A DNA stretch of 64,000 nucleotides from Candidatus Iainarchaeum sp. (GTDB lineage Archaea; Iainarchaeota; Iainarchaeia; Iainarchaeales; JAGVWC01): assembly GCA_018304465.1 (NCBI GenBank), contig JAGVWC010000008.1:96001-160000 (forward strand), written 5' to 3'. Position numbers and translations under genes: made by a program. Under the pieces are notes generated by a model. The model ran no database searches. It had not been told where the DNA came from and saw nothing but the letters and a program-made list of their open reading frames with translations. Within the stretch, counting starts at the first letter, position 1, and every line of letters starts with the position of its first letter. Positions 24,378 through 51,039 of the stretch are shown in pieces.

Positions 24378-24441
24378 GCGACCGACCAAGACCCTTTTTT
24401 TAATGCCTTCGGAGGCCAAAATCAGTACAAAAAGGATCTTT

Positions 24442-27400
24442 ATGGGCTTAGGCGACCAATTACGCGACGCAATGGAAAAACTGCGAAAAAGCACGTTTTC
24501 CGACCGCGACGAAATCAAAAGCATCGTCAAATCCATGCAACGCGCACTGATTTCAGCCGACGTACCCGTCAAACTCGTGCTCGAAGTATCCAAAAAAATC
24601 GAAGACGCCGCGTTCTCCGAACTTGCACCCGGACTCAACCGCCGCGAACACGTATTGAAAAACGCGTACGACAACCTCGCCGAAATACTCGGAGGACAAA
24701 CCAAACCCCCCCAAAACCCCAAACGCATTCTCATGGTCGGATTGTTCGGCTCCGGAAAATGCGTTCATCCTTTGACGATTGTGCCGACTGCGAACGGGTG
24801 CGTTGAAACAATCCAAAAAATATACGAGAAAAACCCGGAAACGGAATTGACGCTCGAAGACGGATTTGTGAAAGAGTTGTCGAATCCGATCGAAGTTTTC
24901 TCGCTTAATCCACTCAACTTGAAAATGACAAGGGGAACAGTTTCACACATCTGGAAATTAAAAAAAGACAAATCCCTATACAAAGTCGCACTAGACAACG
25001 GAAACAATCACGCAGTAATTGTCACACCGGAGCACCCGTTTTTTGTACTTGAAAACGCCCATATTAAAAAAACCAAAGCCGAGGAACTCACCGCGGGCGC
25101 ATTTGTTGCGACACCAAGACAACTTCCTCTGCCAGAAAAACAAATCCCAATTAAGTACCTAGAGCAAAATCTTCCGCAGTCCTTTCAAGTGGTCTGCCCG
25201 GAACTGATAAATGAAGCCAAACAGTTTATGATCGCAAAATTTCATTCACTCACGAACGCATTTAACATTCTCGGAGAAGACTATGCGTATTGTACATTCA
25301 CTGCAAACCTGAAGCGCGGGATATTGCGATTCTCAACTTTAAAAAAACTGAGGAATCAAGGGTTTGAGCCAAATGGAACACAGGAGATAAAGTTGAAAGA
25401 ATTTGGCACGGGAGCGCGAACAATCCAGGTACCTAACCAACTAACGACCGAAATGGCGGAATTCATGGGGTATTTTTTTGCAGACGGCCATATGAGAAAG
25501 GAATATGTTGAAATTACCAACGAATCGAATGAAATACTCGATCGGATAGAAAAAATTGGAATGCGACTATTCCAGAAAAAACCGTGTCGAAAACAAGACA
25601 AGAGAAACGCTAACGTAAAACAAATCCTGTTCTGCTCAGGAGTCTTGACCAAGGCGCTTAACACGGTTTTTGGATTTCCATATTTTAAAAAAAGTGACAT
25701 CATTCGCATACCCCCCATGATTTTGCAGGCGACAAAGGAAAATAAGTATGCCTTTTTGCAGGCATACTTTGACTGCGACGGCTACGTGTCAAAAAACACT
25801 CGTCAGATAGAATTTTGCACTGCGAGTCCCCTCTTTGCTGAAGACCTGCGAATACTGCTCACAAGCCTTGAGATGCAGCCAAATTATAGCAAAAAGAAAA
25901 TCAAGGACAAATATTACTACCGCGTCTGTATCAAATGCAAGGACGTGGAAACCTTCTTTCAGCGAGTAGGATCCCGAATTCCTTTCAAGCAAAAACGCCT
26001 TGCGGGAATGTCTGAAATCGGAGTCGGCCAAACACTTGGAAAAAATGAATTGCTCCATGTCGGCCAATCCATCCGAGACGTTCGAAACCAACAGGGTGCA
26101 ACCATTGGAGACATACAGCACCATGTTGGTTCCTACGGAATATACGAACAAGAAGGATTGATATCCCGCAATTCTCTTAAAAAATTCATTGAAGCGATCA
26201 CGACTAAAACAAAAAACAAGAACAATCAGATACTCCAAAACACAATTCAACCGAAAAAACTGAATGAGTTAAGCACTGCGTTTCAAGAACCGCTTGGCTG
26301 GGTCAACGCCAATGTTTTTCGCCTGAAAGAACTTGGATTTGTCACATATTCCAACGGGGAAGTACAAACAACCGAACTCGGAAAGCAACTGCTTGAAAAA
26401 AACCAAAAAGACGAAGGGCTAGAACTTAAAAAACTAGAGTTGCTTGCCCATTCAGACATCACATGGATGAAAGTCAAGAAGATCGAGCTCGTTGACAACA
26501 CGGAATACGTGTACGACCTCACAGTTGATGAATACCATAACTTTGTTGCTAACCAGTTTATTGTACACAATACCACCACTTCCGGAAAACTCTGTCACTA
26601 TTACCAAAAACGCGGAAAAAAAGTCGGACTGATCGCCGCGGACACGTTTCGACCCGCGGCCATGGAACAACTTGAACAAATCGCCAAAAAAATCAACGCC
26701 ACCGTCATCCTTGACAAAAACGAAACCAAACCCGAAAAAATAATCCAACAAGGATTACAACGCGAAAAAGAATTCGATTTGCTTATCTGCGATTCCGCCG
26801 GACGCAACGCGCTTGATTCCGAATTAGAACAAGAAATCAAAACCATCAACCAAACCTTCAAGCCCGACCAAGCCTGGCTCGTGCTCGGCGCGGACCTCGG
26901 ACAAATCGCCGGAACCCAAGCCAAAGCGTTTCACGACGCGGTCGGCGTCAACGGCGTGATCGTCACGCGCATGGACGGAAGCGCCAAAGGCGGCGGAACA
27001 CTCGCGGCCTGCCGCCAAACCAACAGCCCCGTGTACTTTATCGGAACCGGCGAAAAAACATCCGACCTCGAAGAATTCGACGCGGTGCGATTCCTGTCCC
27101 GCATCATGGGATACGGAGACCTCCAATCGCTTTTGGAAAAAGCCCAAGAAGCCGCACAAGACACCGACATGGGACTCGAAGAACTGCTCGAACACGACTA
27201 CACCCTGGAAACGTTTTACAAACAACTCGAAGCCACCAACAAAATCGGCACCATGGACAAAATCATGGAAATGGTCGGAATGAAACAACAACTCCCAAAA
27301 GAAGCGGCGGAACAAGGACAAAAAAAACTCGAACAATTCCGGTTCATGATGCAAAGCATGACCAAAAAAGAAAAACAAAACCCCGATCTGATCAATTCCA

Positions 27401-27600
27401 GCCGAATTCGCCGCATCGCCCGCGGAAGCGGCAACACCCAGGAAAACGTGCGCGAATTGCTCAAACAATACAAGCGAATGAAAAACGCGTTCAAACAACT
27501 CAAAGGACTCGACGAAAAAAAACTACAACAAGGAATGGACATGAAAAAACTGCAGGAAATGTTTTCCCCGAAAAAAAAGAAAAAACTCCGTTTCCGCTAA
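24442..27600 (+). CDS. srp54: SRP54 (Ffh) interrupted by an intein
   Basis: RALISADV, GLFGSGK/TTT, DTFRPAA, DSAGR, M-domain SMT.KE...SRIRRIARGSG. Confidence 0.96.
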   Translation: MGLGDQLRDAMEKLRKSTFSDRDEIKSIVKSMQRALISADVPVKLVLEVSKKIEDAAFSELAPGLNRREHVLKNAYDNLAEILGGQTKPPQNPKRILMVGLFGSGKCVHPLTIVPTANGCVETIQKIYEKNPETELTLEDGFVKELSNPIEVFSLNPLNLKMTRGTVSHIWKLKKDKSLYKVALDNGNNHAVIVTPEHPFFVLENAHIKKTKAEELTAGAFVATPRQLPLPEKQIPIKYLEQNLPQSFQVVCPELINEAKQFMIAKFHSLTNAFNILGEDYAYCTFTANLKRGILRFSTLKKLRNQGFEPNGTQEIKLKEFGTGARTIQVPNQLTTEMAEFMGYFFADGHMRKEYVEITNESNEILDRIEKIGMRLFQKKPCRKQDKRNANVKQILFCSGVLTKALNTVFGFPYFKKSDIIRIPPMILQATKENKYAFLQAYFDCDGYVSKNTRQIEFCTASPLFAEDLRILLTSLEMQPNYSKKKIKDKYYYRVCIKCKDVETFFQRVGSRIPFKQKRLAGMSEIGVGQTLGKNELLHVGQSIRDVRNQQGATIGDIQHHVGSYGIYEQEGLISRNSLKKFIEAITTKTKNKNNQILQNTIQPKKLNELSTAFQEPLGWVNANVFRLKELGFVTYSNGEVQTTELGKQLLEKNQKDEGLELKKLELLAHSDITWMKVKKIELVDNTEYVYDLTVDEYHNFVANQFIVHNTTTSGKLCHYYQKRGKKVGLIAADTFRPAAMEQLEQIAKKINATVILDKNETKPEKIIQQGLQREKEFDLLICDSAGRNALDSELEQEIKTINQTFKPDQAWLVLGADLGQIAGTQAKAFHDAVGVNGVIVTRMDGSAKGGGTLAACRQTNSPVYFIGTGEKTSDLEEFDAVRFLSRIMGYGDLQSLLEKAQEAAQDTDMGLEELLEHDYTLETFYKQLEATNKIGTMDKIMEMVGMKQQLPKEAAEQGQKKLEQFRFMMQSMTKKEKQNPDLINSSRIRRIARGSGNTQENVRELLKQYKRMKNAFKQLKGLDEKKLQQGMDMKKLQEMFSPKKKKKLRFR
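24760..26571 (+). mobile_element. intein (604 aa) with LAGLIDADG endonuclease in the SRP54 P-loop
   Basis: Starts CVHP, TPEHPF block B, GYFFADG and AYFDCDG, ends YDLTV...VHN/T. Confidence 0.95.
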
Positions 27601-31297: not shown

Positions 31298-32335
31298 ATG
31301 CCCGCACGCAAAATCCCCCAGCAAAAAGCCAATGCCCGGCTACGCAAAAAAATCCCAAAAAACTGGGACAGCCTGGATCCAAAGCATATTCCGGACAAAC
31401 GGCAAAGAGACAAACTCAAACGAATACTGCCCATTCCCGGCAAACTAAAGAAATTTCTGGCCAAGCGAAAAATACGGCCCTTTGCCCCCAAAGAACGCGG
31501 ATTCCGCTTACCCAACCAGGAAATCGGCCCCATCAAACGCGCGACCAACCGAATGCGTTTCATTTACGACCACTACTGGTCCACTTCAGCCGCCGAAATC
31601 GCACAACGCCAACGACTTCAAAAACAGATCCACCAAGGACACAGCCAATTCACGAACCTGACACGATGGGAAAAAAGACGCTTGAACGAATTACTCCAAC
31701 AACAAATCGCGGCAATCGGAAGAGAACGCGGACGCTTTCAAAACAAATACAAAGTCGTTGACGATCGGATCGATGACGAAGCCCTGCGACGACTGGACAT
31801 CCACCCGGATTATCCCGCGGTTCACTCCCGACGCGCGTACATGGAAAACCTTCGAGACGCGCTTCGAAAACCAGGACAACACGCCGTCGGACTCGTGGAC
31901 GTCGACAACTTGTCCCGTGTAAGCACTGAAATCGATCACGCCAAAGCCGGAAAAATCGTCGATATTTTGGCCGAAAGCCTCTCCGAAGTCCTAAAACCGC
32001 GCCGCGGATTTGCATGCGTGTACGGCGGGGACGAACTCTATATTTATCTTCCGCGAAACCTCCGAGAATCCGAACTGATCATGGACGTACGGTTTCGCGA
32101 AGCATTTGAGCGGAGAATAGAAAAATTCCCCGAACTAAAACGACTCGTCAAAAGAAACAACATTGATTTCACCGGCGTCGTCCAAGACTTTTCATCGGAC
32201 ACACCGCGCATCGGATTCCAACCGGACAGCGTTGTGGAAGGACTCAGCCGGCAAGTCAATCGCATCAAGAAAAAGAAAAAACGCAAAGGAATCGTCGTAA
32301 GCCTCAGCAGAAGCGGCCGCGAAGTCAATGTTTAA
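31298..32335 (+). CDS. basic N-terminal region fused to a divergent GGDEF-like domain
   Basis: SRRAYMENL...GLVDVDNL...H...ILAESL...YGGDELYIYLP. Confidence 0.75.
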   Translation: MPARKIPQQKANARLRKKIPKNWDSLDPKHIPDKRQRDKLKRILPIPGKLKKFLAKRKIRPFAPKERGFRLPNQEIGPIKRATNRMRFIYDHYWSTSAAEIAQRQRLQKQIHQGHSQFTNLTRWEKRRLNELLQQQIAAIGRERGRFQNKYKVVDDRIDDEALRRLDIHPDYPAVHSRRAYMENLRDALRKPGQHAVGLVDVDNLSRVSTEIDHAKAGKIVDILAESLSEVLKPRRGFACVYGGDELYIYLPRNLRESELIMDVRFREAFERRIEKFPELKRLVKRNNIDFTGVVQDFSSDTPRIGFQPDSVVEGLSRQVNRIKKKKKRKGIVVSLSRSGREVNV

Positions 32336-33123
32336 GACCGGCTTTTTTCTTTTGCACCTTGCTTCACGCCGCGCATGATCGATTGCATCATTTCTTTGGC
32401 TTTTGCCAAATCCCCATTCGCTTTTTCGACCATCGAACCGACATGCACGATATCCGCACCCGCTGTGATGGTTTCAAACGCGAATTGCTCCGAGCGAACG
32501 CCGCCCGCAACCAACAGCGGAATGTCGATCATTTTTTTCACGTACGAAATCATTTCAGGCGGAGCCGGACTCGGTGCGCCGCCGCCAGATTCCAAAATCA
32601 CGAGTTGACTTCCCATCATCTGGCCCGCTAACGCCGTTGCCGCCGCCAAATAAGGCAATTCCCGCGGAATCAAACGCGCTCTTCCGACCCAACCCACCGC
32701 GCGACCGGGTTCGACGATCACGTAACTCGTCGGAATCGTTTCAAGCCCCATGCGCTTGATCGGCATGGACGCCACGGTCTGGGCGCCGGACAAATAATAC
32801 GGATCATCCGAATTCAACAAGCTCATAAAATACATCGCGTCGGCTTTCGGAGACAACGAAGCGATGTTACCCGGAAACAGCACGACTGGCAACGAAGAAA
32901 CCTCTTTGATCGACGAAATCGTCTGATCCAAAATCTCGCCTTGCGCGCCAACGCTTCCGCCAACCGCGATCGCCGAAAAACCGGTTTCTTCCGCAAGACG
33001 CGCGATTTTTCCCGCTTTTTCCGGAGACTGGTTCGGCGGATCGATCACCAAAAACGCCAAGCCGCGCTTTGAATCAAGCTCGGACAAAATCTTGGACCAG
33101 GTTTTTTTTGAAACAGGTTTCAA
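32332..33123 (-). CDS. geranylgeranylglyceryl phosphate synthase
   Basis: IDP, VGGS, LFPGN, FMSLLNS, LESGGGA, AGGVR. Confidence 0.92.
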   Translation of the reverse strand: MKPVSKKTWSKILSELDSKRGLAFLVIDPPNQSPEKAGKIARLAEETGFSAIAVGGSVGAQGEILDQTISSIKEVSSLPVVLFPGNIASLSPKADAMYFMSLLNSDDPYYLSGAQTVASMPIKRMGLETIPTSYVIVEPGRAVGWVGRARLIPRELPYLAAATALAGQMMGSQLVILESGGGAPSPAPPEMISYVKKMIDIPLLVAGGVRSEQFAFETITAGADIVHVGSMVEKANGDLAKAKEMMQSIMRGVKQGAKEKSRS

Positions 33124-33655: not shown

Positions 33656-34516
33656 ATGAACCCGATTCCGTCCGGATTACTGAACCAATACCTGGAAAAA
33701 ACAGGCAAATCTCCCGAAGAAGCCGAAAAATTAATCAGGGAAAAAACCGCCAAATTCGCGGGACTATTAACGGAAGAAGCCGCGTTGTTTTTACTTGCCA
33801 AAGAAGCGGGAATCAATCCGGACCTTGCCACCAAAACCATCCAACCCGTTCCGATCCAGCAACTCGAACCCGGACAAACCAACATCGACGTTTTGTGCGT
33901 GGCCAAACACGTGTATCCCATCAAGGAATTTCCCAACAAAAACAAACCCGGCACGGGAAAACGCGGGTCTTTGCTGGTATGCGACGAAACCGGCGAAATT
34001 TATCTCACCTTATGGCACCAGCACACGGATTTGATCAAAACCGTTTCCATCGGAACGCCGATTCTTCTTTCGAACGTATCCGTTACCGAATACAACGGAC
34101 AAAAACAACTCAACTTCGGATTCAAAAGCGGATTCGACGCCAATCCCACCGCGGTTTCCACCCACACCTTGCCGAATTTTAAAACCGAAACCATGGCCAT
34201 CGAAAAAATCGAAGGCGGACAATACAACCTCAACGTATCCGGAACCATCACCAAATTGTTTCCCGTCAAAAGCTTTGAAAACGACCGCGACAGCGGCGAG
34301 TACCGCGCGTTTGAAATCAAAGACGATTCCGCGATCATCCGATGCGTCGCCTGGAACGACGCCGCAACCCAAACCGAAAAGCTAAAAGAAGGCGACGCCG
34401 TACTTATTGAAAACGCGTACTCGAAAACCAACCGAAACGACGAAACCGAACTGCACTTAGGAGACAAAAGCCGCGTCGTCAGTCAATCCCAAACCAGAGG
34501 AGAGTCCACGTCGTGA
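33656..34516 (+). CDS. rpa: replication protein A / OB-fold ssDNA-binding protein
   Basis: AGLLTEEAAL N-domain; two OB folds (DETGEIYLTLW, DDSAIIRCVAW). Confidence 0.88.
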   Translation: MNPIPSGLLNQYLEKTGKSPEEAEKLIREKTAKFAGLLTEEAALFLLAKEAGINPDLATKTIQPVPIQQLEPGQTNIDVLCVAKHVYPIKEFPNKNKPGTGKRGSLLVCDETGEIYLTLWHQHTDLIKTVSIGTPILLSNVSVTEYNGQKQLNFGFKSGFDANPTAVSTHTLPNFKTETMAIEKIEGGQYNLNVSGTITKLFPVKSFENDRDSGEYRAFEIKDDSAIIRCVAWNDAATQTEKLKEGDAVLIENAYSKTNRNDETELHLGDKSRVVSQSQTRGESTS

Positions 34517-35232
34517 AACCCGCCCGAATCCCAAAATCGCGTCCCAAAGGATTTCAAACGCGATGGGAAAAAAAACGAATTTTGCGAGACAAAAAACGAA
34601 TCAATCAAGGAAAAAAAACGCTTGCCGAACCATTGGTACTGGCAAGCCCGAGCGAAAGACGCGCGGCACTTGCGAAAGGACAAATGCTTTCTTACAACGG
34701 TCCGCAAAAAATCGAACTTCCTCTTGTCATCACTTTGAACCACGAAAGCCTAGTTCTCCAAGGTGCCTACCGAACCCCCGACAGTCGAATACTCACCCTG
34801 CGCTTTTCGCCCAGCCATGACCTGCTGTCCTTATACGAATTCGAAATGGGACCGGAACCAACGGAACGCGCAATACAACCCGCATGGATCACCGCCGAAC
34901 CTAGTTTGGGACACATGGAAATTTCGCGAAATCTGCGGGGCCGGGGCATCGGATTAAAAGCCGCTTCAAAAGCCGAACGCACCAACCGAGCCATTCAACA
35001 AGGCCACCATCAATTCCGAGCATTGAACCGGTTTACGCCTGTTTTTTCAAAGTTACACTATGCTTTGATTGAAGAAGGCGAATTTGCGTCTGTTTTTTTT
35101 TTTAAAAAAGGAAAACATCAGCCCCGTGATAACCTATCGGCTTTCCATCGAATCGAAGCTATTGATCCAAAAACAGGCAAAGCCAGAATTTTTACTTTTC
35201 CAATTTCAATAAAAGAGGAATCAAAAGTATGA
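34513..35232 (+). CDS. basic orphan with GNAT-like motif A (paralog 1)
   Basis: HMEISRNLRGRGIGLKAASKAER. Confidence 0.7.
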   Translation: MKPARIPKSRPKGFQTRWEKKRILRDKKRINQGKKTLAEPLVLASPSERRAALAKGQMLSYNGPQKIELPLVITLNHESLVLQGAYRTPDSRILTLRFSPSHDLLSLYEFEMGPEPTERAIQPAWITAEPSLGHMEISRNLRGRGIGLKAASKAERTNRAIQQGHHQFRALNRFTPVFSKLHYALIEEGEFASVFFFKKGKHQPRDNLSAFHRIEAIDPKTGKARIFTFPISIKEESKV

Positions 35233-37626: not shown

Positions 37627-37802
37627 ACTAATCGATCGAACAACTACCAAAAGGTTTAAAACCGTCACAGAAACGCCGTTCACCGGCAAACCACCCTCCC
37701 GATGTTTAAAAGCACCCAAACCGAAATAGAATATATTGGCGGACAAGACCGATTCCCTGCTCGGGGAAATTGGCCGTACAGCCGCCCACAGGAGGAAACA
37801 AC

Positions 37803-38873
37803 ATGAGCGAACGAACCGTCACGGTAAAACCGTCCAAACCAACCAAAGAAAAGGAAGAAAAAACCATTGAAGAACAAACTCTTTCTATGGACGAAACCAA
37901 AACCGCCACTTCCGGAAAAAAAGAAGAAAGTGGAAAAGTCAAATCGATTACGGAACTACCCGGAATCGGACCCCAAACCGCTGAAAAACTCTTGCAAGCC
38001 GGATACAAAACCCTTGAATCCATCGCCGTCGCGTCCCCGATGGAATTAATGGAAGCCGCCGGCATCGGCGAAATCACCGCGGGAAAAGCCATTGGCGCCG
38101 CCCGCGAAAGCCTCGAAATGGGATACGAAACCGCCGACAAAATCCTTGCGCGACGCGAAACCCTTGAACGCATCTCCACCGGAAGCAAAGAACTCGACAG
38201 TTTAATCGGAGGCGGCGTCGAAACCCAAAGCATCACCGAAGTCTACGGACAATACGCCAGCGGAAAAACCCAGTGGGCATTCCAGCTATGCGTCATGACG
38301 CAGCTTCCCACCGAACAAGGCGGACTATCCGGAAACATCCTTTACATCGACTCCGAAAACTCGTTTCGACCCGAACGCGTGGTTTCGATTGCCAAAGCCA
38401 AAGGACTTGATCCCGAAAAAACCCTCAAAAACATTTTCGTGGCCCGCGCCTATAACGCCGACCACCAGATGTTACTCGCCGAAAAAGCGGTCGAAATGAT
38501 CGCACCCAAAAACATCAAACTCATCATCGTGGACTCGCTCACCAGCCTGTTTAGAAGCGAATTCATCGGACGCGGACAACTCTCCGACCGGCAGCAACGC
38601 CTCAACCGCCACATGCACACCTTGCAAAAAGTCGCGGAAATGCACAACGTCGCCGTGCTGGTCACCAACCAAGTCATGAGCCGACCCGACGTTTTGTTCG
38701 GAGACCCAACCAGTCCGATCGGCGGACACATCGTAGGACACAACTCGAAAACGCGAATCTATCTGCGAAAAGCAAAAGAAAACAAACGCGTCGCCAAGTT
38801 AGTGGACTCGCCATCCCTTCCAGACGGAGAAGCCATTTACTCGCTTACCGACGCCGGAATCGAAGACGCCTAA
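37803..38873 (+). CDS. radA: DNA repair/recombination protein RadA
   Basis: HhH LPGIGP, GQYASGKTQ, FRPER, VDSL, TNQV; GGAGG RBS. Confidence 0.97.
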   Translation: MSERTVTVKPSKPTKEKEEKTIEEQTLSMDETKTATSGKKEESGKVKSITELPGIGPQTAEKLLQAGYKTLESIAVASPMELMEAAGIGEITAGKAIGAARESLEMGYETADKILARRETLERISTGSKELDSLIGGGVETQSITEVYGQYASGKTQWAFQLCVMTQLPTEQGGLSGNILYIDSENSFRPERVVSIAKAKGLDPEKTLKNIFVARAYNADHQMLLAEKAVEMIAPKNIKLIIVDSLTSLFRSEFIGRGQLSDRQQRLNRHMHTLQKVAEMHNVAVLVTNQVMSRPDVLFGDPTSPIGGHIVGHNSKTRIYLRKAKENKRVAKLVDSPSLPDGEAIYSLTDAGIEDA

Positions 38874-41641: not shown

Positions 41642-44600
41642 ATGACAATTAAGTTCGTGAAAAAGCGAGACGGCCGCGTAGTCGCCTTTAATCAAGACAC
41701 CATTACCAACGCGGTCTGGAAAGCCGCCAAAGCGGTTGGCGGAAAAGACAAATCACTGGCGGTCGAATTATCCAGAAAAGTCGTTCACGAACTCGAAAAA
41801 AAATTCCCCGAAAAACACGTTCCCACCGTGGAAGAAGTCCAGGACGCCGTTGAAAAAGTACTGATTGAACAAGGCCACGCGCGAACCGCGAAAGCCTACA
41901 TCATTTACCGCCAGCAACACGCCGAAATCCGGCGCGAAAAAGCCCTGGTGCTTGACAAACAAGAAACCGACGAAGTCGACAAACGATTCGACTTAAACGC
42001 GTTACGCGTCTTAAAAGCGCGTTACCTGCGCAAAGACGCCGCGGGAAAAACCATCGAAACCCCAAAAGAACTCTTCACCCGCGTCGCGGTACACGTACTG
42101 ATCCCCGAATTGCTCTACGATCCCCGCGTCTTTGACAAAGAAGCGACCCAAAAAACCCACCCCGTGGAGCCGTTTGACAACGTCGAAAACGAATACAAAT
42201 TATCCATTGGAAAATACCAACTCAACCAATACCATCTTGAAGCCCTAAAACGCGTGTACGATAAGTTTTCCCGCCAAGGCAAAATGAAAATGCCGTGGGG
42301 ACGATTCTTAGAAATGCTCAAAAACGGAGAATTCGACCAACACGAAACCAGCGGAGACGAATTCTACAGCCTCATGGTGTACAAAAAATTCATGCCCAAT
42401 ACCCCTGCGATCGCCAATTTCGGAGCGGTCCTTGGAATGGGCAGCGCCTGTTTTGTTATGGATGTCCGCGACAATATCGAAGGCATCATGGACACCCTCA
42501 AAAACGCCACCATCGTATTCAAATCCGGCGGCGGCGTCGGATACAATTTCTCGAAACTCCGACCCGAAGGCGATTTCGTTTCCACCACCACCGGCGCGGC
42601 CAGCGGCCCCATCTCGTTTATGGGACTGTTCGACAAAATGACCGAAGTCATCAAACAAGGCGGAATCCGCCGCGGCGCCAACATGGGAATTCTCAACTGC
42701 CTTGCAGGAGATACCGAGATTTCAACCATTGAAGGACGCAAAAAAATCAAAGAACTGGTTGGAACACAACCCCACCTGTACTGCCTAAATGATACCAATG
42801 AAGTGCGGATCCGGCAAGCGAACCGTGTCATCCACTCCGGCCAAAAAAAACTGGTTCGAATCACCTTCGACGACGATACCCGCATTGATTGCACGCCCGA
42901 TCATCGCATCATGCGCTCGAACGGCCAGTATACACACGCCCAAGACCTCCAGCCCCTTGACAGCGTCATGGCGTTCCATAAGAAAATACTCAACGACCGC
43001 TACTTTATCGGTTCCACTATGAGCCCACTTTCCCCCGAGCACGTCATCGCCACCGAAACCAACAGCAAAGTACTGATCGAGCAGACCGGCCAAACACGAT
43101 TGTCCAACGACCTGTGCGTCCACCACAAGGACAACAACCCCCTCAATAACCACCCGAATAACCTGCAAGTGCTTACCATTTCAGAACATGCCAAAATACA
43201 CTCCGATGTCCTGATCGAAAACCAAAAAAGAATCGCGATTTCACGGAAAGGAAAAACGATCGAACAGGTTTATGGCAGCGAAAAAGCGGATGCATGGAAA
43301 CAAAAAATGAGCCAAGCACGACGAAACAAAAAACCTTGGAACGCCGGCTCCGACACAGAAGTCTACAAAGCCCATTACAAAAACGGATTCAAGAACCAAT
43401 ACGAATACGCCAACGCCAACCACAAAGTGGTCAAAGTCGAACCACTGGAGGGCATTCACGACATCTACGACATTATCATGGACGATTACCACAACTTCGT
43501 CGCGAACGGCGTCTTTGTCCACAACTCAAACCACCCGGACATCGAAAAATTCATCACCGCCAAAGAAGGCAACAAACAACTCACCAACTTCAATATCTCC
43601 GTGCTCATGATGCCGGACTTCTGGGAATACTACAACAAAAACGAACCCTACCCCCTGATCAATCCCCGCGACGGAGAAGTCGTCCGAACCGTGAACCCCC
43701 GCATGCTCTTTGACATGATTGTCTACCAAGCATGGGAAAGCGCGGAACCCGGCGTGATCTTCTACGACAAAGTCAACGAATACAACCCGTTCTACGAACA
43801 CCTCGGACCCATTGTGACCACGAATCCCTGCGTGACTGGAGACACGCGCGTATCCACCGCAAAAGGATTGGAACGCATCGACCAACTTGCACCCGGCCTA
43901 ATTACTGTGGATTCGCGTGTAAACGCGCTTTCAAACAAAAGCGGCTCGAAATCGCTCCAACTTGGAACCCAGCAAGGAACCGCAATTCAGGTCATTAAAA
44001 CTGGAACCAAACCCGTGTTCCGAGTGGAAACCACCAGTGGATTTGAAATCAAAGCAACAGCAGATCACAAGATACTGACCCCCCACGGATGGAAAGCAGT
44101 TGAGCAACTGACCGCTGGAAACGAAATACTGATCCAAAGCGGGGCAGGAAAATTCAATTCAGATTCCGCATTACCTTTTATTGTGGAAAATACCCCCGTC
44201 GGAAAAAACGGAAAAAAGTACCGGAATAACCTTCCCGCAAAATGGAGCTACGATCTCGGCCTCGTTATGGGCTGGATGCTCGGCGACGGATGGCTCAATG
44301 ATCAAGCGAACCAAGTGGGGCTCGTATTTTCAAAACCGGACTATGAAGCAAAAGAACAGCTCAAACCTATTTTTGAGCATTATTGTAACCGATCCATAAA
44401 GCTCACCAACAGAGATCAAAGTGCAGTTCAGATCCGAAGCAACAGCAAGTATGTTACAGAGTACTTCTTCAAACTCGGACTCACTTCCGTCGATAAGGAA
44501 AAAGAAGTTCCAAGCACGATTTACACCGCAACCGAAGAGGCAGTCAGAGGATTCCTCAAAGGATTATTTTCTTCGGATGGAACTATTGCGCACCAAAAAG

Positions 44601-46243
44601 AGAGCAGAAACTATGTACGACTAAATTCCAGTTCACTTACATTACTCAAAGGAGCGCAACGATTGCTTCTCAATCTTGGAATCAAAAGTACGATTTATGA
44701 TCGCTCAACCGAACCAAAAACATTCAAATACATCACGGCAAAAAACCAAACTAAGCAATATCAAACCAGTGGCGAAAATTATGAGCTAAATATCAGCAAA
44801 GAAAATTTGCCACGCTTTTTAGACAAAATCGGTTTCATTCAAAGCCGACACACCCAGACGGCAGCAAAAATACAACAACACGAATTTTACACTGAATATT
44901 TTGTTGAAAAAATAAAAACCATCGAGGCTGCCGGCATCGAAGATGTCTACGATCTTACGGAACCGACCACCCATTCATTTATCGGAAACGGAATACTGCT
45001 ACATAATTGCGGCGAAGTATTGTTGTATCCGAACGAAAGCTGTAACCTTGGAAGCGTCAATGTCTGGACGTTTTTCAAAGAAGACGAAGACGGAACCCAA
45101 TACTTTGACTGGGATGACCTCAAAAAAACCGTGCAAACCGCAAGCAAGTTTCTCGACAACGTCATTGACGTGAACAAGTTTCCATTAAAAGCCATCGAAG
45201 ACATGACCGACGCCACGCGCAAAATCGGACTCGGAGTCATGGGCGTCGCCGACTTGTTTTACGAACTCAAACTCCCCTACAATTCCCCCGAAGCGCGCGA
45301 TGCCGCCGAAAAACTCATGGAATTCATCAACTACCACAGCAAAGCCGTTTCCATTGACCTGGCCAAAACCCGCGGACCCATGCCCTACAACGACAAAAGC
45401 TTTTACCTCGAAGGCCGGCTCGCGATTTCAGGACCCGAAACCAAAGAAAAACTCCACTTCAACTGGGACGACATCCGCGAAGGATACAAAAAATTCGGTT
45501 CCCGCAACGGCTACAACACCGTCATCGCGCCCACCGGAAGCATCTCCATGATCGCGGGCTGCAGCTCCGGAATCGAACCCGTGTACTCACTCGTATTCGA
45601 AAAAAACGTCAAAGTCGGAAGCTTCTACTACGTCGACCCCGTCTTTGAACGCATCATGAAACAAGAAGGACTCCACGACAGCAAACTCATGGAAGACGTA
45701 TCCGAAAACGGCGGAAGCATCCAACACATCCCGTATTTGACCAACGAACAAAAACACGTTTTCGTCACTGCCATGGACATCACCCCTGAAGACCACATCC
45801 GAATGCTCGCCGCGTTCCAACGCTGGTGCGACTCCAGCATTTCGAAAACCAACAACTTTCCGGCCGACGCGACCGTCGAAGACATGCGCGCCAGTTACCT
45901 GCTCGCATACCAATTGGGATGCAAAGACGTTACGGTTTTCCGCGACAGCTCCATCAAAGCCCAAGTGCTGAACGCACCCAAGAAAAAAACCGTGGACACG
46001 AGCTCGCTCAAACTCGAGGCCAGCAAAGCCCAAACCATGCAAGCGATTTCGCCTTCACCTGCCCCCATAACCCAAACCGCCAAACCCGCGGAAACAAAAC
46101 AAGTCACGGGCCGAAGCACTTCGACAGTCCAGCAACCCAAAAGCAAATACGAAATCACGAACTGCCCCAACTGCAACTCCGTGACCCAAATCAAAGAAGG
46201 CTGCGTCAACTGCCCCGAATGCGGCTGGGGAATGTGCAACTAA
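41642..46243 (+). CDS. nrdJ: class II (B12) ribonucleotide reductase with ATP cone and two inteins
   Basis: VKKRDG ATP cone, PNTP...SACF, RRGANM, NP/CGE, APTGSIS, C-terminal CxxC pairs. Confidence 0.96.
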   Translation: MTIKFVKKRDGRVVAFNQDTITNAVWKAAKAVGGKDKSLAVELSRKVVHELEKKFPEKHVPTVEEVQDAVEKVLIEQGHARTAKAYIIYRQQHAEIRREKALVLDKQETDEVDKRFDLNALRVLKARYLRKDAAGKTIETPKELFTRVAVHVLIPELLYDPRVFDKEATQKTHPVEPFDNVENEYKLSIGKYQLNQYHLEALKRVYDKFSRQGKMKMPWGRFLEMLKNGEFDQHETSGDEFYSLMVYKKFMPNTPAIANFGAVLGMGSACFVMDVRDNIEGIMDTLKNATIVFKSGGGVGYNFSKLRPEGDFVSTTTGAASGPISFMGLFDKMTEVIKQGGIRRGANMGILNCLAGDTEISTIEGRKKIKELVGTQPHLYCLNDTNEVRIRQANRVIHSGQKKLVRITFDDDTRIDCTPDHRIMRSNGQYTHAQDLQPLDSVMAFHKKILNDRYFIGSTMSPLSPEHVIATETNSKVLIEQTGQTRLSNDLCVHHKDNNPLNNHPNNLQVLTISEHAKIHSDVLIENQKRIAISRKGKTIEQVYGSEKADAWKQKMSQARRNKKPWNAGSDTEVYKAHYKNGFKNQYEYANANHKVVKVEPLEGIHDIYDIIMDDYHNFVANGVFVHNSNHPDIEKFITAKEGNKQLTNFNISVLMMPDFWEYYNKNEPYPLINPRDGEVVRTVNPRMLFDMIVYQAWESAEPGVIFYDKVNEYNPFYEHLGPIVTTNPCVTGDTRVSTAKGLERIDQLAPGLITVDSRVNALSNKSGSKSLQLGTQQGTAIQVIKTGTKPVFRVETTSGFEIKATADHKILTPHGWKAVEQLTAGNEILIQSGAGKFNSDSALPFIVENTPVGKNGKKYRNNLPAKWSYDLGLVMGWMLGDGWLNDQANQVGLVFSKPDYEAKEQLKPIFEHYCNRSIKLTNRDQSAVQIRSNSKYVTEYFFKLGLTSVDKEKEVPSTIYTATEEAVRGFLKGLFSSDGTIAHQKESRNYVRLNSSSLTLLKGAQRLLLNLGIKSTIYDRSTEPKTFKYITAKNQTKQYQTSGENYELNISKENLPRFLDKIGFIQSRHTQTAAKIQQHEFYTEYFVEKIKTIEAAGIEDVYDLTEPTTHSFIGNGILLHNCGEVLLYPNESCNLGSVNVWTFFKEDEDGTQYFDWDDLKKTVQTASKFLDNVIDVNKFPLKAIEDMTDATRKIGLGVMGVADLFYELKLPYNSPEARDAAEKLMEFINYHSKAVSIDLAKTRGPMPYNDKSFYLEGRLAISGPETKEKLHFNWDDIREGYKKFGSRNGYNTVIAPTGSISMIAGCSSGIEPVYSLVFEKNVKVGSFYYVDPVFERIMKQEGLHDSKLMEDVSENGGSIQHIPYLTNEQKHVFVTAMDITPEDHIRMLAAFQRWCDSSISKTNNFPADATVEDMRASYLLAYQLGCKDVTVFRDSSIKAQVLNAPKKKTVDTSSLKLEASKAQTMQAISPSPAPITQTAKPAETKQVTGRSTSTVQQPKSKYEITNCPNCNSVTQIKEGCVNCPECGWGMCN
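42698..43525 (+). mobile_element. intein (276 aa) with HNH endonuclease
   Basis: CLAGDT...TPDH...VHHKDNNPLNNHPNNL..L..SEH...VHN/S. Confidence 0.93.
43829..45007 (+). mobile_element. intein (393 aa) with LAGLIDADG endonuclease next to the RNR radical Cys
   Basis: NP/CVTGDT...TADH...GWMLGDG...GLFSSDG...LHN/CGE. Confidence 0.95.
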
Positions 46244-49191: not shown

Positions 49192-51039
49192 ATGCAATAC
49201 GCCCACCAAACCGGGGAAGACCTCTTAGAAAAAGTCCGCAACAGCCATTTTTCGTCGGAAATACCGCTGATTCGAAAAGCGCTTGAAAAAAACAAACCTC
49301 TTCCCGAACACACCCGAACGCTTGCCATCGACACGGCAAGCACGTTGACCCAATTTGGATTCGGAAAAACGGCCGTCTGCGCGGCACTGCTTCAATTCCA
49401 CGATCTTGAAACCCTCAAAGGCGAATTCGAATCCGAAATACTGGAACTGGCCCACGGACTGCAAAAAATCGAGCGCGTGAAAGCCAAGAACCGGGGAAAA
49501 CTATCCCCGGAATCACTGCAAAAAATCATTCTGGCCTTGTCACCGGATCCCCAAATCATCATCATCTGGATCTGCAAAAAACTCGTGGAACTGAGGTTTT
49601 TGTCCGAACAACCCAAAGACGAACAACTTCCGCTGGCCGAAGACGTGCTCAATCAATGGGTCCCCGTTATTCACAAACTCGGGCTGCACAAAATCCGGTG
49701 GGAAATCGAAGATCTGGCCATGAAAAAAATCCTGCCCAAAGAATACAAAGCCATCAAAGAATACCTCAACGACAAGCGAAACACGCGACAAGAAAAAATG
49801 CGCGAACTCGTCGAAAAACTCCGATCCGCGCTACAAAAAGCCCAACTTGAAGCTGTGGTATTCGGACGCGTCAAAAACTTTTACCGCATTTACAAAAAAA
49901 TGAACGAACAAAAACGAAACCTGAAAGACATCCACGATTTGATCGGCGCGCGCGTCATCTGCAACAGCGTAAACGAGTGCTACGAAACACTTGCCGTGAT
50001 CCAGAACTCCTTCAAACTCGAAACCCAAGGATTCGATGATTACATCCAAAAACCCAAAAAAACAAAGTACCAATCCATTCACGTCGACCTGGACTGGAAA
50101 GGAATACCATCCGAAATACAGATTCGAACCTGGGAGATGCACAAAGAAGCCGAAGAAGGCGTCGCCGCGCACTGGGAATACAAACAATACAAAAAAGACC
50201 CGACGTTTGACCGGCACTTAACGATTGCCAAACAACTGGCGGAATGGTTCGACCAAGTACACCACAAAAGCATCATGGACTCGCTGAACCTAAAATTCGA
50301 AAAAAACAAAATCTTCGTTTTAACCCCAAAAAGCGAACTCGTGGAGCTGCCCGAAAAAGCCACCCCCGTCGATTTTGCGTTTGCCGTGCACACAGAACTC
50401 GGATACAAATGCGAAAAAGCCCGCGTGAACGGAAAAATCGTCCCGCTCGATTACCAACTCCAAAACGCGGACAGCGTCGAAATCATCACCAGCGAAAAGC
50501 AAATTCCAAAACAACACTGGTTAACGTTTGTTCAAACCGAAAAAGCGAAACAAAAAATCCGAACCAAACTGAACATCGTTCCGACAAAACCCGAAAAAGA
50601 AAAAAAAACCGGAATCGTAAAAGCGACGTTCCGGAAAAACGCGCAGTTCCTTCCCGCCAAATGCTGCTCGCCGATTCCGGGCGATGAAATCGTCGGGCAC
50701 AAAACCACGAAACGAAAAATAAAAATCCACCGGATCGACTGCCCCAATGCCCAGCGGATACCCGAAGACGAGCGACTGACACTATCCAACGCATCGTTCA
50801 CTCAAAAAGAATTCGAAACCACGCTGCGAATCAACGTGCACAACCAGCCGGGAGTACTCTCCGAAATACTGGACGCCATCGGCAAACACGATACCAAAAT
50901 CATTTCCACCGAAGCCGTTACGCACGCGCACTCAATCACATGCCGATTCCGCATCAAAACAAAAAACAGGAAAACCTTCGAGCAAACCGCCGAACGCGTA
51001 CAGAAAATCAAAGGGATTATCGACGTACAACGCGGATGA
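49192..51039 (+). CDS. long RelA/SpoT homologue (degenerate HD, SYNTH, TGS, ZFD, ACT)
   Basis: GRVK..Y.IYKKM, DLIGAR, FDDYI..PK...YQSIH, EIQIRT, AAHWEYK, TPVDFAFAVHT, CCSPIPGD, HRIDC. Confidence 0.92.
   Translation: MQYAHQTGEDLLEKVRNSHFSSEIPLIRKALEKNKPLPEHTRTLAIDTASTLTQFGFGKTAVCAALLQFHDLETLKGEFESEILELAHGLQKIERVKAKNRGKLSPESLQKIILALSPDPQIIIIWICKKLVELRFLSEQPKDEQLPLAEDVLNQWVPVIHKLGLHKIRWEIEDLAMKKILPKEYKAIKEYLNDKRNTRQEKMRELVEKLRSALQKAQLEAVVFGRVKNFYRIYKKMNEQKRNLKDIHDLIGARVICNSVNECYETLAVIQNSFKLETQGFDDYIQKPKKTKYQSIHVDLDWKGIPSEIQIRTWEMHKEAEEGVAAHWEYKQYKKDPTFDRHLTIAKQLAEWFDQVHHKSIMDSLNLKFEKNKIFVLTPKSELVELPEKATPVDFAFAVHTELGYKCEKARVNGKIVPLDYQLQNADSVEIITSEKQIPKQHWLTFVQTEKAKQKIRTKLNIVPTKPEKEKKTGIVKATFRKNAQFLPAKCCSPIPGDEIVGHKTTKRKIKIHRIDCPNAQRIPEDERLTLSNASFTQKEFETTLRINVHNQPGVLSEILDAIGKHDTKIISTEAVTHAHSITCRFRIKTKNRKTFEQTAERVQKIKGIIDVQRG

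Follow-up and report, generated by a model that had tools for sequence, protein, structure and literature searches.

What becomes of a GGDEF domain that has kept the residues of its chemistry and lost those that read guanine? The question is raised by one gene of the archaeon Candidatus Iainarchaeum sp., found in a stretch of 64,000 nucleotides (assembly GCA_018304465.1, contig JAGVWC010000008.1, positions 96,001 to 160,000 of the forward strand) that we call the window and in which coordinates are counted unless another contig is named. The product of this gene, P0001, is a genuine GGDEF-fold protein with a complete domain at about residues 166-340. Read from its sequence, the domain retains its predicted metal-binding, catalytic and triphosphate-binding residues, and all those expected to read guanine are lost. 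We tentatively suggest that P0001 is no longer a diguanylate cyclase and serves as a regulatory or slow-turnover module that binds nucleoside triphosphates with magnesium (Mg-NTP). The parts of the gene and protein on which the argument rests are the following.

31298..32335, plus strand: coding sequence of P0001, 345 residues plus stop, from the list of open reading frames (ORFs) and the translation; a 61%-identical full-length orthologue, P0002, supports the frame and the start region.
31298..31528, plus strand: residues 1-77, a basic tail rich in Pro, Lys and Arg (isoelectric point, pI, 11.69; 25 Lys and Arg among 77 residues), predicted to be mostly disordered.
31529..31798, plus strand: residues 78-167, a predicted stalk-like element with helices at 78-112 and 123-167 (AlphaFold2 secondary structure).
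31793..32317, plus strand: residues 166-340, the complete GGDEF (palm-like) domain (Pfam PF00990, VIA-align and Foldseek).
31898..31906, plus strand: D201-V-D203, the metal-binding Asp (equivalent to PleD D327) and a second Asp (columns 201 and 203 of alignment A4).
31922..31954, plus strand: S209 to G218-K219 (STEIDHAKAGK), the former guanine-binding segment, with Asn replaced by Ser209 and Asp by Gly218; just upstream, the P-loop Lys is replaced by Ser206.
32018..32038, plus strand: V241-Y-G243-G-D245-E246-L247, the signature hairpin, with GGDE kept, Val in place of the Arg two before GG and Leu in place of the final Phe.
32267..32281, plus strand: K324 to K328 in a KKKKKRK run on the last helix, phosphate-binding positions equivalent to PleD K442 and R446 (A4 columns).

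The preliminary description of this locus had claimed an ORF with DVD and GGDEL motifs and had named a PF00990 profile search and a structure model as ways to check it. Both motifs are present (D201-V-D203 and G243-G-D-E-L247), and both approaches returned the GGDEF fold. Against Pfam PF00990 (GGDEF), P0001 scored 27.4 bits (E 3.2e-6), above the gathering score of 23.8, with residues 177-273 lying on profile positions 11-110 of 161; the score in a scan of the whole genome was 28.4 bits. NCBIfam TIGR00254 gave 25.3 bits, below its cut-off of 37.4, and the NCBIfam equivalog SiaD matched weakly across residues 102-270. A phmmer search of PDB sequences returned 12 matches at E<=10, 11 of them GGDEF proteins, with 4wxo at the top (E 0.0018). 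The AlphaFold2 model, built on the 87-row alignment A4, had a mean predicted local distance difference test score (pLDDT) of 85.7 and a predicted template-modelling score of 0.71; block means of pLDDT over ten residues were 93-98 across residues 161-320, roughly 85-95 in helices 78-167 and 45 to 75 in residues 1-77. This run superseded one on a 2-row alignment, which was unusable (pLDDT 50.5). VIA-align placed model residues 166-344 on SadC 4wxw (Z 19.0, root-mean-square deviation 2.3 Å, 159 of the 165 SadC residues) and residues 166-339 on residues 289-454 of PleD 2wb4_B (Z 18.2, 2.6 Å, 161 residues), and all 50 entries among the matches listed were GGDEF-domain structures (Z 16.2-19.0). The best Foldseek matches, each with probability 1.00, were the diguanylate cyclase structures SiaD, PleD, DgcR, WspR and SadC, with SiaD 7e6g first (E 5.7e-8); since A4 is made of GGDEF relatives, this agreement in fold is partly tied to the sequence match. 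Neither GGDEF_GdpP nor Cas10-Cmr2_palm2 of Pfam matched P0001 at E<=1, and a Cas10/mCpol reading of the protein was set aside for want of such a match.

Column counts and a tree of the domain were also made on A4, and PleD equivalents were assigned by spacing and by the A4 consensus: D201, S206, S209 and G218 of P0001 stand for PleD D327, K332, N335 and D344, and K324 and K328 for K442 and R446. The Arg two before GG is presumably R366 in PleD. Among the residues kept in P0001, Asp201, Gly243 and Glu246 are the same in 87/87 rows, Asp203, Gly244 and Lys324 in 86/87, and Lys328 is matched by R or K in 82/87; column 245, where P0001 has D, holds D in 34 rows and E in 53, and column 247, Leu in P0001, holds F in 64 and L in 11. 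The text available for PMC7288161 describes the PleD residues D327 and E370 as holding Mg ions, N335 and D344 as binding guanine, and K442, R446 and the main chain of F330, F331 and K332 as binding phosphates, and it reports D327, N335 and D344 to be essential to GGDEF activity.

The positions that face the base are different. P0001 belongs to an offshoot of five known sequences (P0001-P0005), and four of its members in A4 are the only rows without the guanine-binding Asn, which is present in the other 83 of 87; P0001 has Ser209, and the four members have S, S, L and V. This variation means that no new hydrogen-bonding reader is conserved at the position. The Asp of the xxGD motif (66/87 rows) is Gly218 in P0001 and always a small residue across the offshoot (G, A, G, G), and the Arg two before GG (column 241; R in 72/87 rows, V in 4) is Val241, with V, V, L and V in the offshoot. 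The P-loop Lys (column 206; 74/87 rows) is Ser206, with S, N, N and A in the offshoot, and P0005 has no Lys or Arg anywhere in the P-loop turn. Earlier observations of an altered segment, STEIDHAKAGK (residues 209-219), and of a Val before the motif, with the acidic residues kept, were thus borne out by the sequence and by the A4 columns. An I-site, defined in the text available for PMC7288161 as RxxD five residues upstream of GG[DE]EF, was not present in P0001, where residues 234-237 are PRRG; column 237 is Gly in 56/87 rows and Asp in 27/87.

These losses bear directly on whether P0001 might still be a diguanylate cyclase, with a non-canonical mode of GTP binding. Its Pfam score above the gathering score, a fold nearest to active cyclases and the kept catalytic residues would all fit such an enzyme. 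However, the residues that replace both guanine readers are unable to form the original hydrogen bonds, and the portion of PMC7288161 available reports N335 and D344 as essential. The Arg before GG and the P-loop Lys are lost as well, and the genome already encodes a canonical cyclase, described below. We consider continued synthesis of cyclic di-GMP (c-di-GMP) by P0001 improbable.

A different enzyme is easier to reconcile with the same columns. P0001 may be an active GGDEF-fold nucleotidyltransferase or cyclase with a rebuilt base pocket, one that takes non-guanine NTPs or does not discriminate among bases and makes a product other than c-di-GMP; candidates would be another cyclic dinucleotide, a mixed dinucleotide, a linear pppNpN or an oligonucleotide. 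What argues for this is that all chemistry residues are kept (Asp201, GGDE, E246, K324 and K328) and all specificity residues lost, as in a change of substrate. Across the four offshoot members, which are 29-62% identical, D201, D203, H214, G243, G244, D245 and E246 are invariant, and the offshoot has invariant residues of its own (P170-D-Y-P173, S177, H195, C240, G293, D297 and S299) that could form a new pocket. There is precedent in the Hypr enzymes, in which one substitution at the Asp position changes the product (PMC6456294 and PMC7288161, as far as their available text goes). Room for such an activity is also left by Sidorov et al. (Mol Microbiol 2026, PMC13725321), who write in the text available that, for archaeal GGDEF domains with departures from the signature residues, the function 'needs to be defined'.

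Against a rebuilt pocket, the Asn is retained in Hypr enzymes, with Ser rather than Gly at the Asp position, and both readers are gone in P0001. The unconserved Asn position and the missing P-loop Lys, with P0005 lacking any basic residue in that turn, also count against it, and they are what leads us to a regulatory or slow-turnover role. The same can be said of the poor tolerance of canonical active sites for such changes: the text available for PMC6456294 describes a 'Goldilocks' active site, with Asp-to-Ser swaps inactivating canonical enzymes in four cases. We regard a rebuilt pocket as possible, if rather doubtful, and computation does not separate an enzyme with a different product from an inactive decoy. 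The further proposal that an active offshoot makes a nucleotide messenger other than c-di-GMP, giving the archaeon two GGDEF-made signals beside a (p)ppGpp enzyme, seems to us unlikely.

The offshoot is a rare, fast-evolving branch of the GGDEF family of this order, and its members were few wherever we searched. Among 5.8 billion clustered proteins, only P0001 itself and P0002 (346 residues, aligned to P0001 at 61% identity with no frame breaks) were found at E<=0.001. A profile search of 1.84 billion representatives gave 88 matches at E<=0.001 and four at E<=1e-10, namely P0001, P0003 (E 7.8e-39), P0004 (E 1.2e-26) and P0005 (E 4.3e-25); P0004 is an N-terminal fragment of 140 residues, and the likeness of P0003-P0005 to P0001 extends far into the N-terminal helices. 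A word-indexed search with A3, the profile of the offshoot, scored 8000 candidates and yielded only P0001, P0002 and P0005 at E<=1e-10. In genomes, A3 matched strongly in 2/196 of the order and 2/215 of the phylum: the source genome of the window, G000 (486.5 bits), and G117 (409.7 bits), a genome of the same order that encodes P0003, with the next score at 88.7 bits. No member was found with A3 in three genomes of the same family (82-85% complete) or in two scans of metagenome contigs (with A3, then with P0002), and a search of genome contigs for offshoot orthologues returned only the contig that also holds P0003. NCBI names for the relatives include 'GGDEF domain-containing protein [Candidatus ainarchaeum sp.]' and hypothetical protein, 'Candidatus Diapherotrites archaeon'.

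In a quick, unrooted maximum-likelihood tree of the domain (87 rows, 165 columns), P0001, P0002, P0003 and P0005 formed a clade with a support of 98 in the Shimodaira-Hasegawa-like approximate likelihood-ratio test (SH-aLRT) and a stem of 0.71. The clade was nested in a 55-row group dominated by sequences of the order, with other long-branch variants as nearest neighbours, which leaves that last placement unsure. Long branches of this kind (the end branch of P0005 is 1.18 against a median of 0.52) might mark a duplicated copy of the family's cyclase gene that is decaying or has no function, as might the very patchy distribution (2/215 phylum genomes and 0/3 of the same family) and weak scores such as that of P0005 against PF00990 (23.0 bits, just under the cut-off of 23.8). 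Yet the frames are open and full-length in P0001, P0002 and P0005 and open up to the contig end in P0003, and 51 columns are invariant across the four offshoot sequences, mostly on the catalytic strands and the hairpin. The composition of the gene is native and the domain is modelled with high confidence. A relic is, in our view, quite improbable.

The wider family is well represented in this order. PF00990 was found above its cut-off in 69/196 order genomes, 22/55 high-quality genomes and 31/73 genera, and at E<=0.001 in 24 of the 25 relatives scanned, the fragment P0004 being the exception. None of these 25 contained a recognised sensor domain. Other families matched among them were related palm families, GGDEF_GdpP in one protein and Cas10-Cmr2_palm2 in five; the latter matches were weak (20.9-35.3 bits, two above the cut-off of 27), as expected of homologous palm folds. 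The N-terminal region had a pI >9.5 in 33/38 order rows (median 11.35), and in order rows the metal-binding Asp was preceded by a median of 154.5 residues. With its basic tail, predicted long helices and GGDEF domain, and no sensor domain, P0001 belongs to this archaeal family of the order. A GGDEF fold in an archaeon is already known and in print: according to the text available for PMC13725321, GGDEF proteins of archaea, chiefly of DPANN and 'class II' clades, showed diguanylate cyclase activity when assayed in Salmonella and E. coli. The earlier view that c-di-GMP signalling is essentially bacterial is therefore outdated. The supplement text of PMC13725321, Figure S7 aside, gave 0 matches to accessions of the named relatives of P0001.

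Two further sets of variants were observed in the order. One is a divergent clade (SH-aLRT 100, stem 1.0) of L005 (1330-2121, minus strand of its contig), L058 (1375-2166, minus), L050 (1276-2103, plus), P0007, P0011 and P0026. In the clade of L005, L058 and L050 the Asn is kept, Leu, Phe or His stands at the guanine-binding Asp, and His replaces the Arg before GGDEF. This clade could be a second altered-specificity lineage, with an alignment that is uncertain near a one-residue insert. The other is L062 (2476-3468, plus strand, contig C124 of genome G131), a family member of 331 residues in which GSDEF stands for GGDEF and Thr occupies the Asp position; G131 encodes a canonical GGDEF copy as well.

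The basic region ahead of the domain bears on the suggestion of an effector. About 160 basic residues had been reported there, which is right (pI 11.7 for residues 1-77 and 10.6 for residues 78-167), though the whole archaeal family shares it. No family was found for the N-terminal tail in a Pfam scan or in an ESM Atlas search with residues 1-168, which gave no usable feature match and only structure rows with template-modelling scores <0.5 by query, all generic helical proteins. DPANN archaea are generally regarded as dependent on partners, and a very basic tail could, speculatively, serve uptake or targeting if P0001 were secreted or injected against a host or bacterial partner. However, the charged N-terminus showed no hydrophobic segment (by reading the sequence, with no signal-peptide predictor run) and is shared with canonical members, no secretion genes adjoin the gene, and PADLOC returned no match for P0001 or for the ORF at 34513-35229, on which a role in a defence system was also set aside. 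The suggestion of an effector aimed at a bacterial partner is unsupported, and we consider it extremely improbable. The helices at 78-112 and 123-167 had a hydrophobic fraction of 0.54-0.60 at heptad positions a and d against 0.36-0.40 overall, a signal too weak to assign a coiled coil. By analogy with SiaD, DgcB and WspR they may form a dimerising stalk; a homodimer prediction for residues 78-345 scored 0.00 against a mark of 0.42, with controls not run, and speaks neither for nor against dimerisation.

The surroundings of the gene show that P0001 is encoded by an archaeon, as the preliminary description had proposed; archaeal-type genes on the contig include the following.

24403-27597, plus strand: SRP54, interrupted by an intein with a LAGLIDADG domain.
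32335-33123, minus strand: geranylgeranylglyceryl phosphate (GGGP) synthase (PcrB family), convergent with the P0001 gene and overlapping its stop by 4 nt.
33656-34513: a protein like replication protein A, with OB folds; an archaeal-type gene.
37770-38870: RadA (Rad51 and HHH_5); an archaeal-type gene.
41642-46240, plus strand: ribonucleotide reductase of 1533 residues with intein-splicing and LAGLIDADG signals.

The genome G000 (1.25 Mb, 15 contigs, completeness 91.9%, contamination 0.41%) belongs to the DPANN lineage Iainarchaeota/Diapherotrites, and an RNA 3'-phosphate cyclase gene, also of archaeal type, lies on the same contig as P0001. Directly upstream of P0001, on the same strand and after a gap of 41 nt, is a gene for an NAD-dependent epimerase. 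The P0001 gene has a GC content of 0.51 against 0.485 for the window, and of 0.549 at third codon positions against 0.547-0.606 in its neighbours; from this composition and the unbroken orthologue, the gene looks native and intact. With the epimerase and the GGGP synthase as neighbours, there is no linked gene for an effector, receptor or degrading enzyme, and the G117 relative, whose gene runs off the end of contig C47, has a different set of neighbouring ORFs (read by eye). Both observations weigh against an active enzyme with a product of its own.

Two other genes of the window deserve mention. A full-length RelA/SpoT homologue of 615 residues with HD_4, RelA_SpoT, TGS and ACT domains is encoded at 49192-51036 (plus strand), and PF04607 was detected in 161/196 order genomes; judging by these counts, a (p)ppGpp-type enzyme is nearly universal in this DPANN order. 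The ORF at 34513-35232 (plus strand) encodes a basic protein of 239 residues for which we found no Pfam, NCBIfam or PADLOC match. The N-terminus of P0001 was considered as its paralogue on the strength of a single pairwise BLASTP match (9/23 identities at residues 102-124, E 0.006), a likeness rejected as probably due to chance, given that the motif is not conserved in P0002.

On contig C5 of the same genome we detected a canonical GGDEF paralogue (L001, 621-1511, plus strand; 296 residues, 76.8 bits against Pfam), in which the Lys, Asn, Asp and Arg are intact, the motif is GGEEF and the N-terminus is basic (pI 11.9). G117 likewise encodes a canonical GGDEF copy beside its offshoot member. The six ORFs adjoining the C5 paralogue gave one match only, a beta-helix, and further along the contig are mevalonate-pathway genes and genes for serine hydroxymethyltransferase and ThyX. 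This content is compatible with the archaeon and is not independent proof of correct binning. Despite the two GGDEF genes, no match at E<=0.01 was found in the 92%-complete genome for EAL (PF00563), PilZ (PF07238) or HD_5/HD-GYP (PF13487).

Taken with the active-site columns, the paralogue gives shape to the regulatory or slow-turnover reading. We infer that P0001 no longer makes c-di-GMP and would still bind Mg-NTP through the retained metal and triphosphate site. By comparison with CC3396 and YybT, it may then act as a regulatory, sensor or slow NTP-turnover module, and would do so alongside the canonical GGEEF cyclase of contig C5. Several points weigh against this proposal. Kept chemistry with only the specificity residues changed is also what a change of substrate classically looks like, and degenerate GGDEF domains that serve as receptors or scaffolds usually lose the GG[DE]EF motif itself. 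A sensor of NTPs that is blind to the base has no obvious biological logic, the NTP binding is predicted from retained residues, and the partnership with the paralogue is putative. With no EAL, PilZ or HD-GYP found in the genome, no pathway is apparent that P0001 could regulate, apart from the paralogue, and the failure to find the offshoot in the three genomes of the same family suggests a role that is dispensable or very local.

P0001 is a natural case in which, across a small clade, the residues of GGDEF chemistry are kept and every guanine-reading residue is gone, with a canonical paralogue in the same genome. The novelty lies in this rare subfamily, with its chemistry intact and its base pocket missing, and not in the presence of the fold. 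An active P0001 would broaden the range of products made by GGDEF enzymes past that of Hypr, 3',3'-cyclic GMP-AMP (3',3'-cGAMP), and would point to a second messenger in archaea; were it inactive, it would be the first described archaeal degenerate regulatory GGDEF domain. Either outcome would bear on the role of signature-deviating archaeal GGDEF domains, the question left by PMC13725321 in its available text. The order-wide counts for GGDEF and RelA/SpoT, with the EAL, PilZ and HD-GYP searches of G000 that found nothing, provide context for nucleotide signalling in reduced genomes.

Among known systems, the archaeal proteins of PMC13725321 are the closest in setting: like P0001, they come from verified archaeal contigs, and many are short and have no recognised sensor domain. 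In the text available, most of the 20 proteins from metagenome-assembled genomes in that study kept GG(D/E)EF and the other catalytic signature residues, unlike P0001, which has neither the Asn nor the Asp, and none of the 20 had Ser for the Asp of xxGD. SiaD (7e6g), DgcB (6ttr), GCN4-WspR (3i5c) and SadC (4wxo/4wxw) share with P0001 a long helix that runs straight into the GGDEF domain, and the VIA-align Z of the P0001 model against DgcB 6ttr_B was 17.8. These cyclases are specific for guanine and retain the Asn, Asp and Arg, unlike P0001 (identity 14-20%), and none has a counterpart of its 77-residue basic tail. PleD and WspR of class I have in common with P0001 the fold, the metal-binding Asp, the GG[DE]E hairpin and the Lys/Arg on the last helix. 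In P0001, however, Asn335, Asp344, the Arg before GG and Lys332 of PleD are replaced by Ser, Gly, Val and Ser, and it has neither the RxxD I-site nor the receiver domain.

Hypr enzymes and degenerate GGDEF domains depart from the canonical pattern in two other ways. The Hypr enzymes GacA and Bd0367 make 3',3'-cGAMP through a substitution at the Asp344 position in a context that requires GGDEF (Asp) and not GGEEF (PMC6456294), and they accept other purine NTPs (PMC6456294; PMC7288161), as described in the available text of both papers. They have Ser or Thr at the Asp344 position and keep the Asn (Asn339); with Gly218 and Ser209, P0001 falls outside the Hypr definition as given there. Among degenerate GGDEF domains, the text available for PMC7288161 describes CC3396/PdeA as a GTP sensor and YybT/GdpP as an ATPase. 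In these proteins, as in our proposal for P0001, the GGDEF fold is used for nucleotide binding or hydrolysis and not for c-di-GMP synthesis. Their GGDEF domains adjoin EAL or DHH/DHHA1 outputs and have an altered GG[DE]EF motif, whereas the domain of P0001 stands alone and keeps GGDE.

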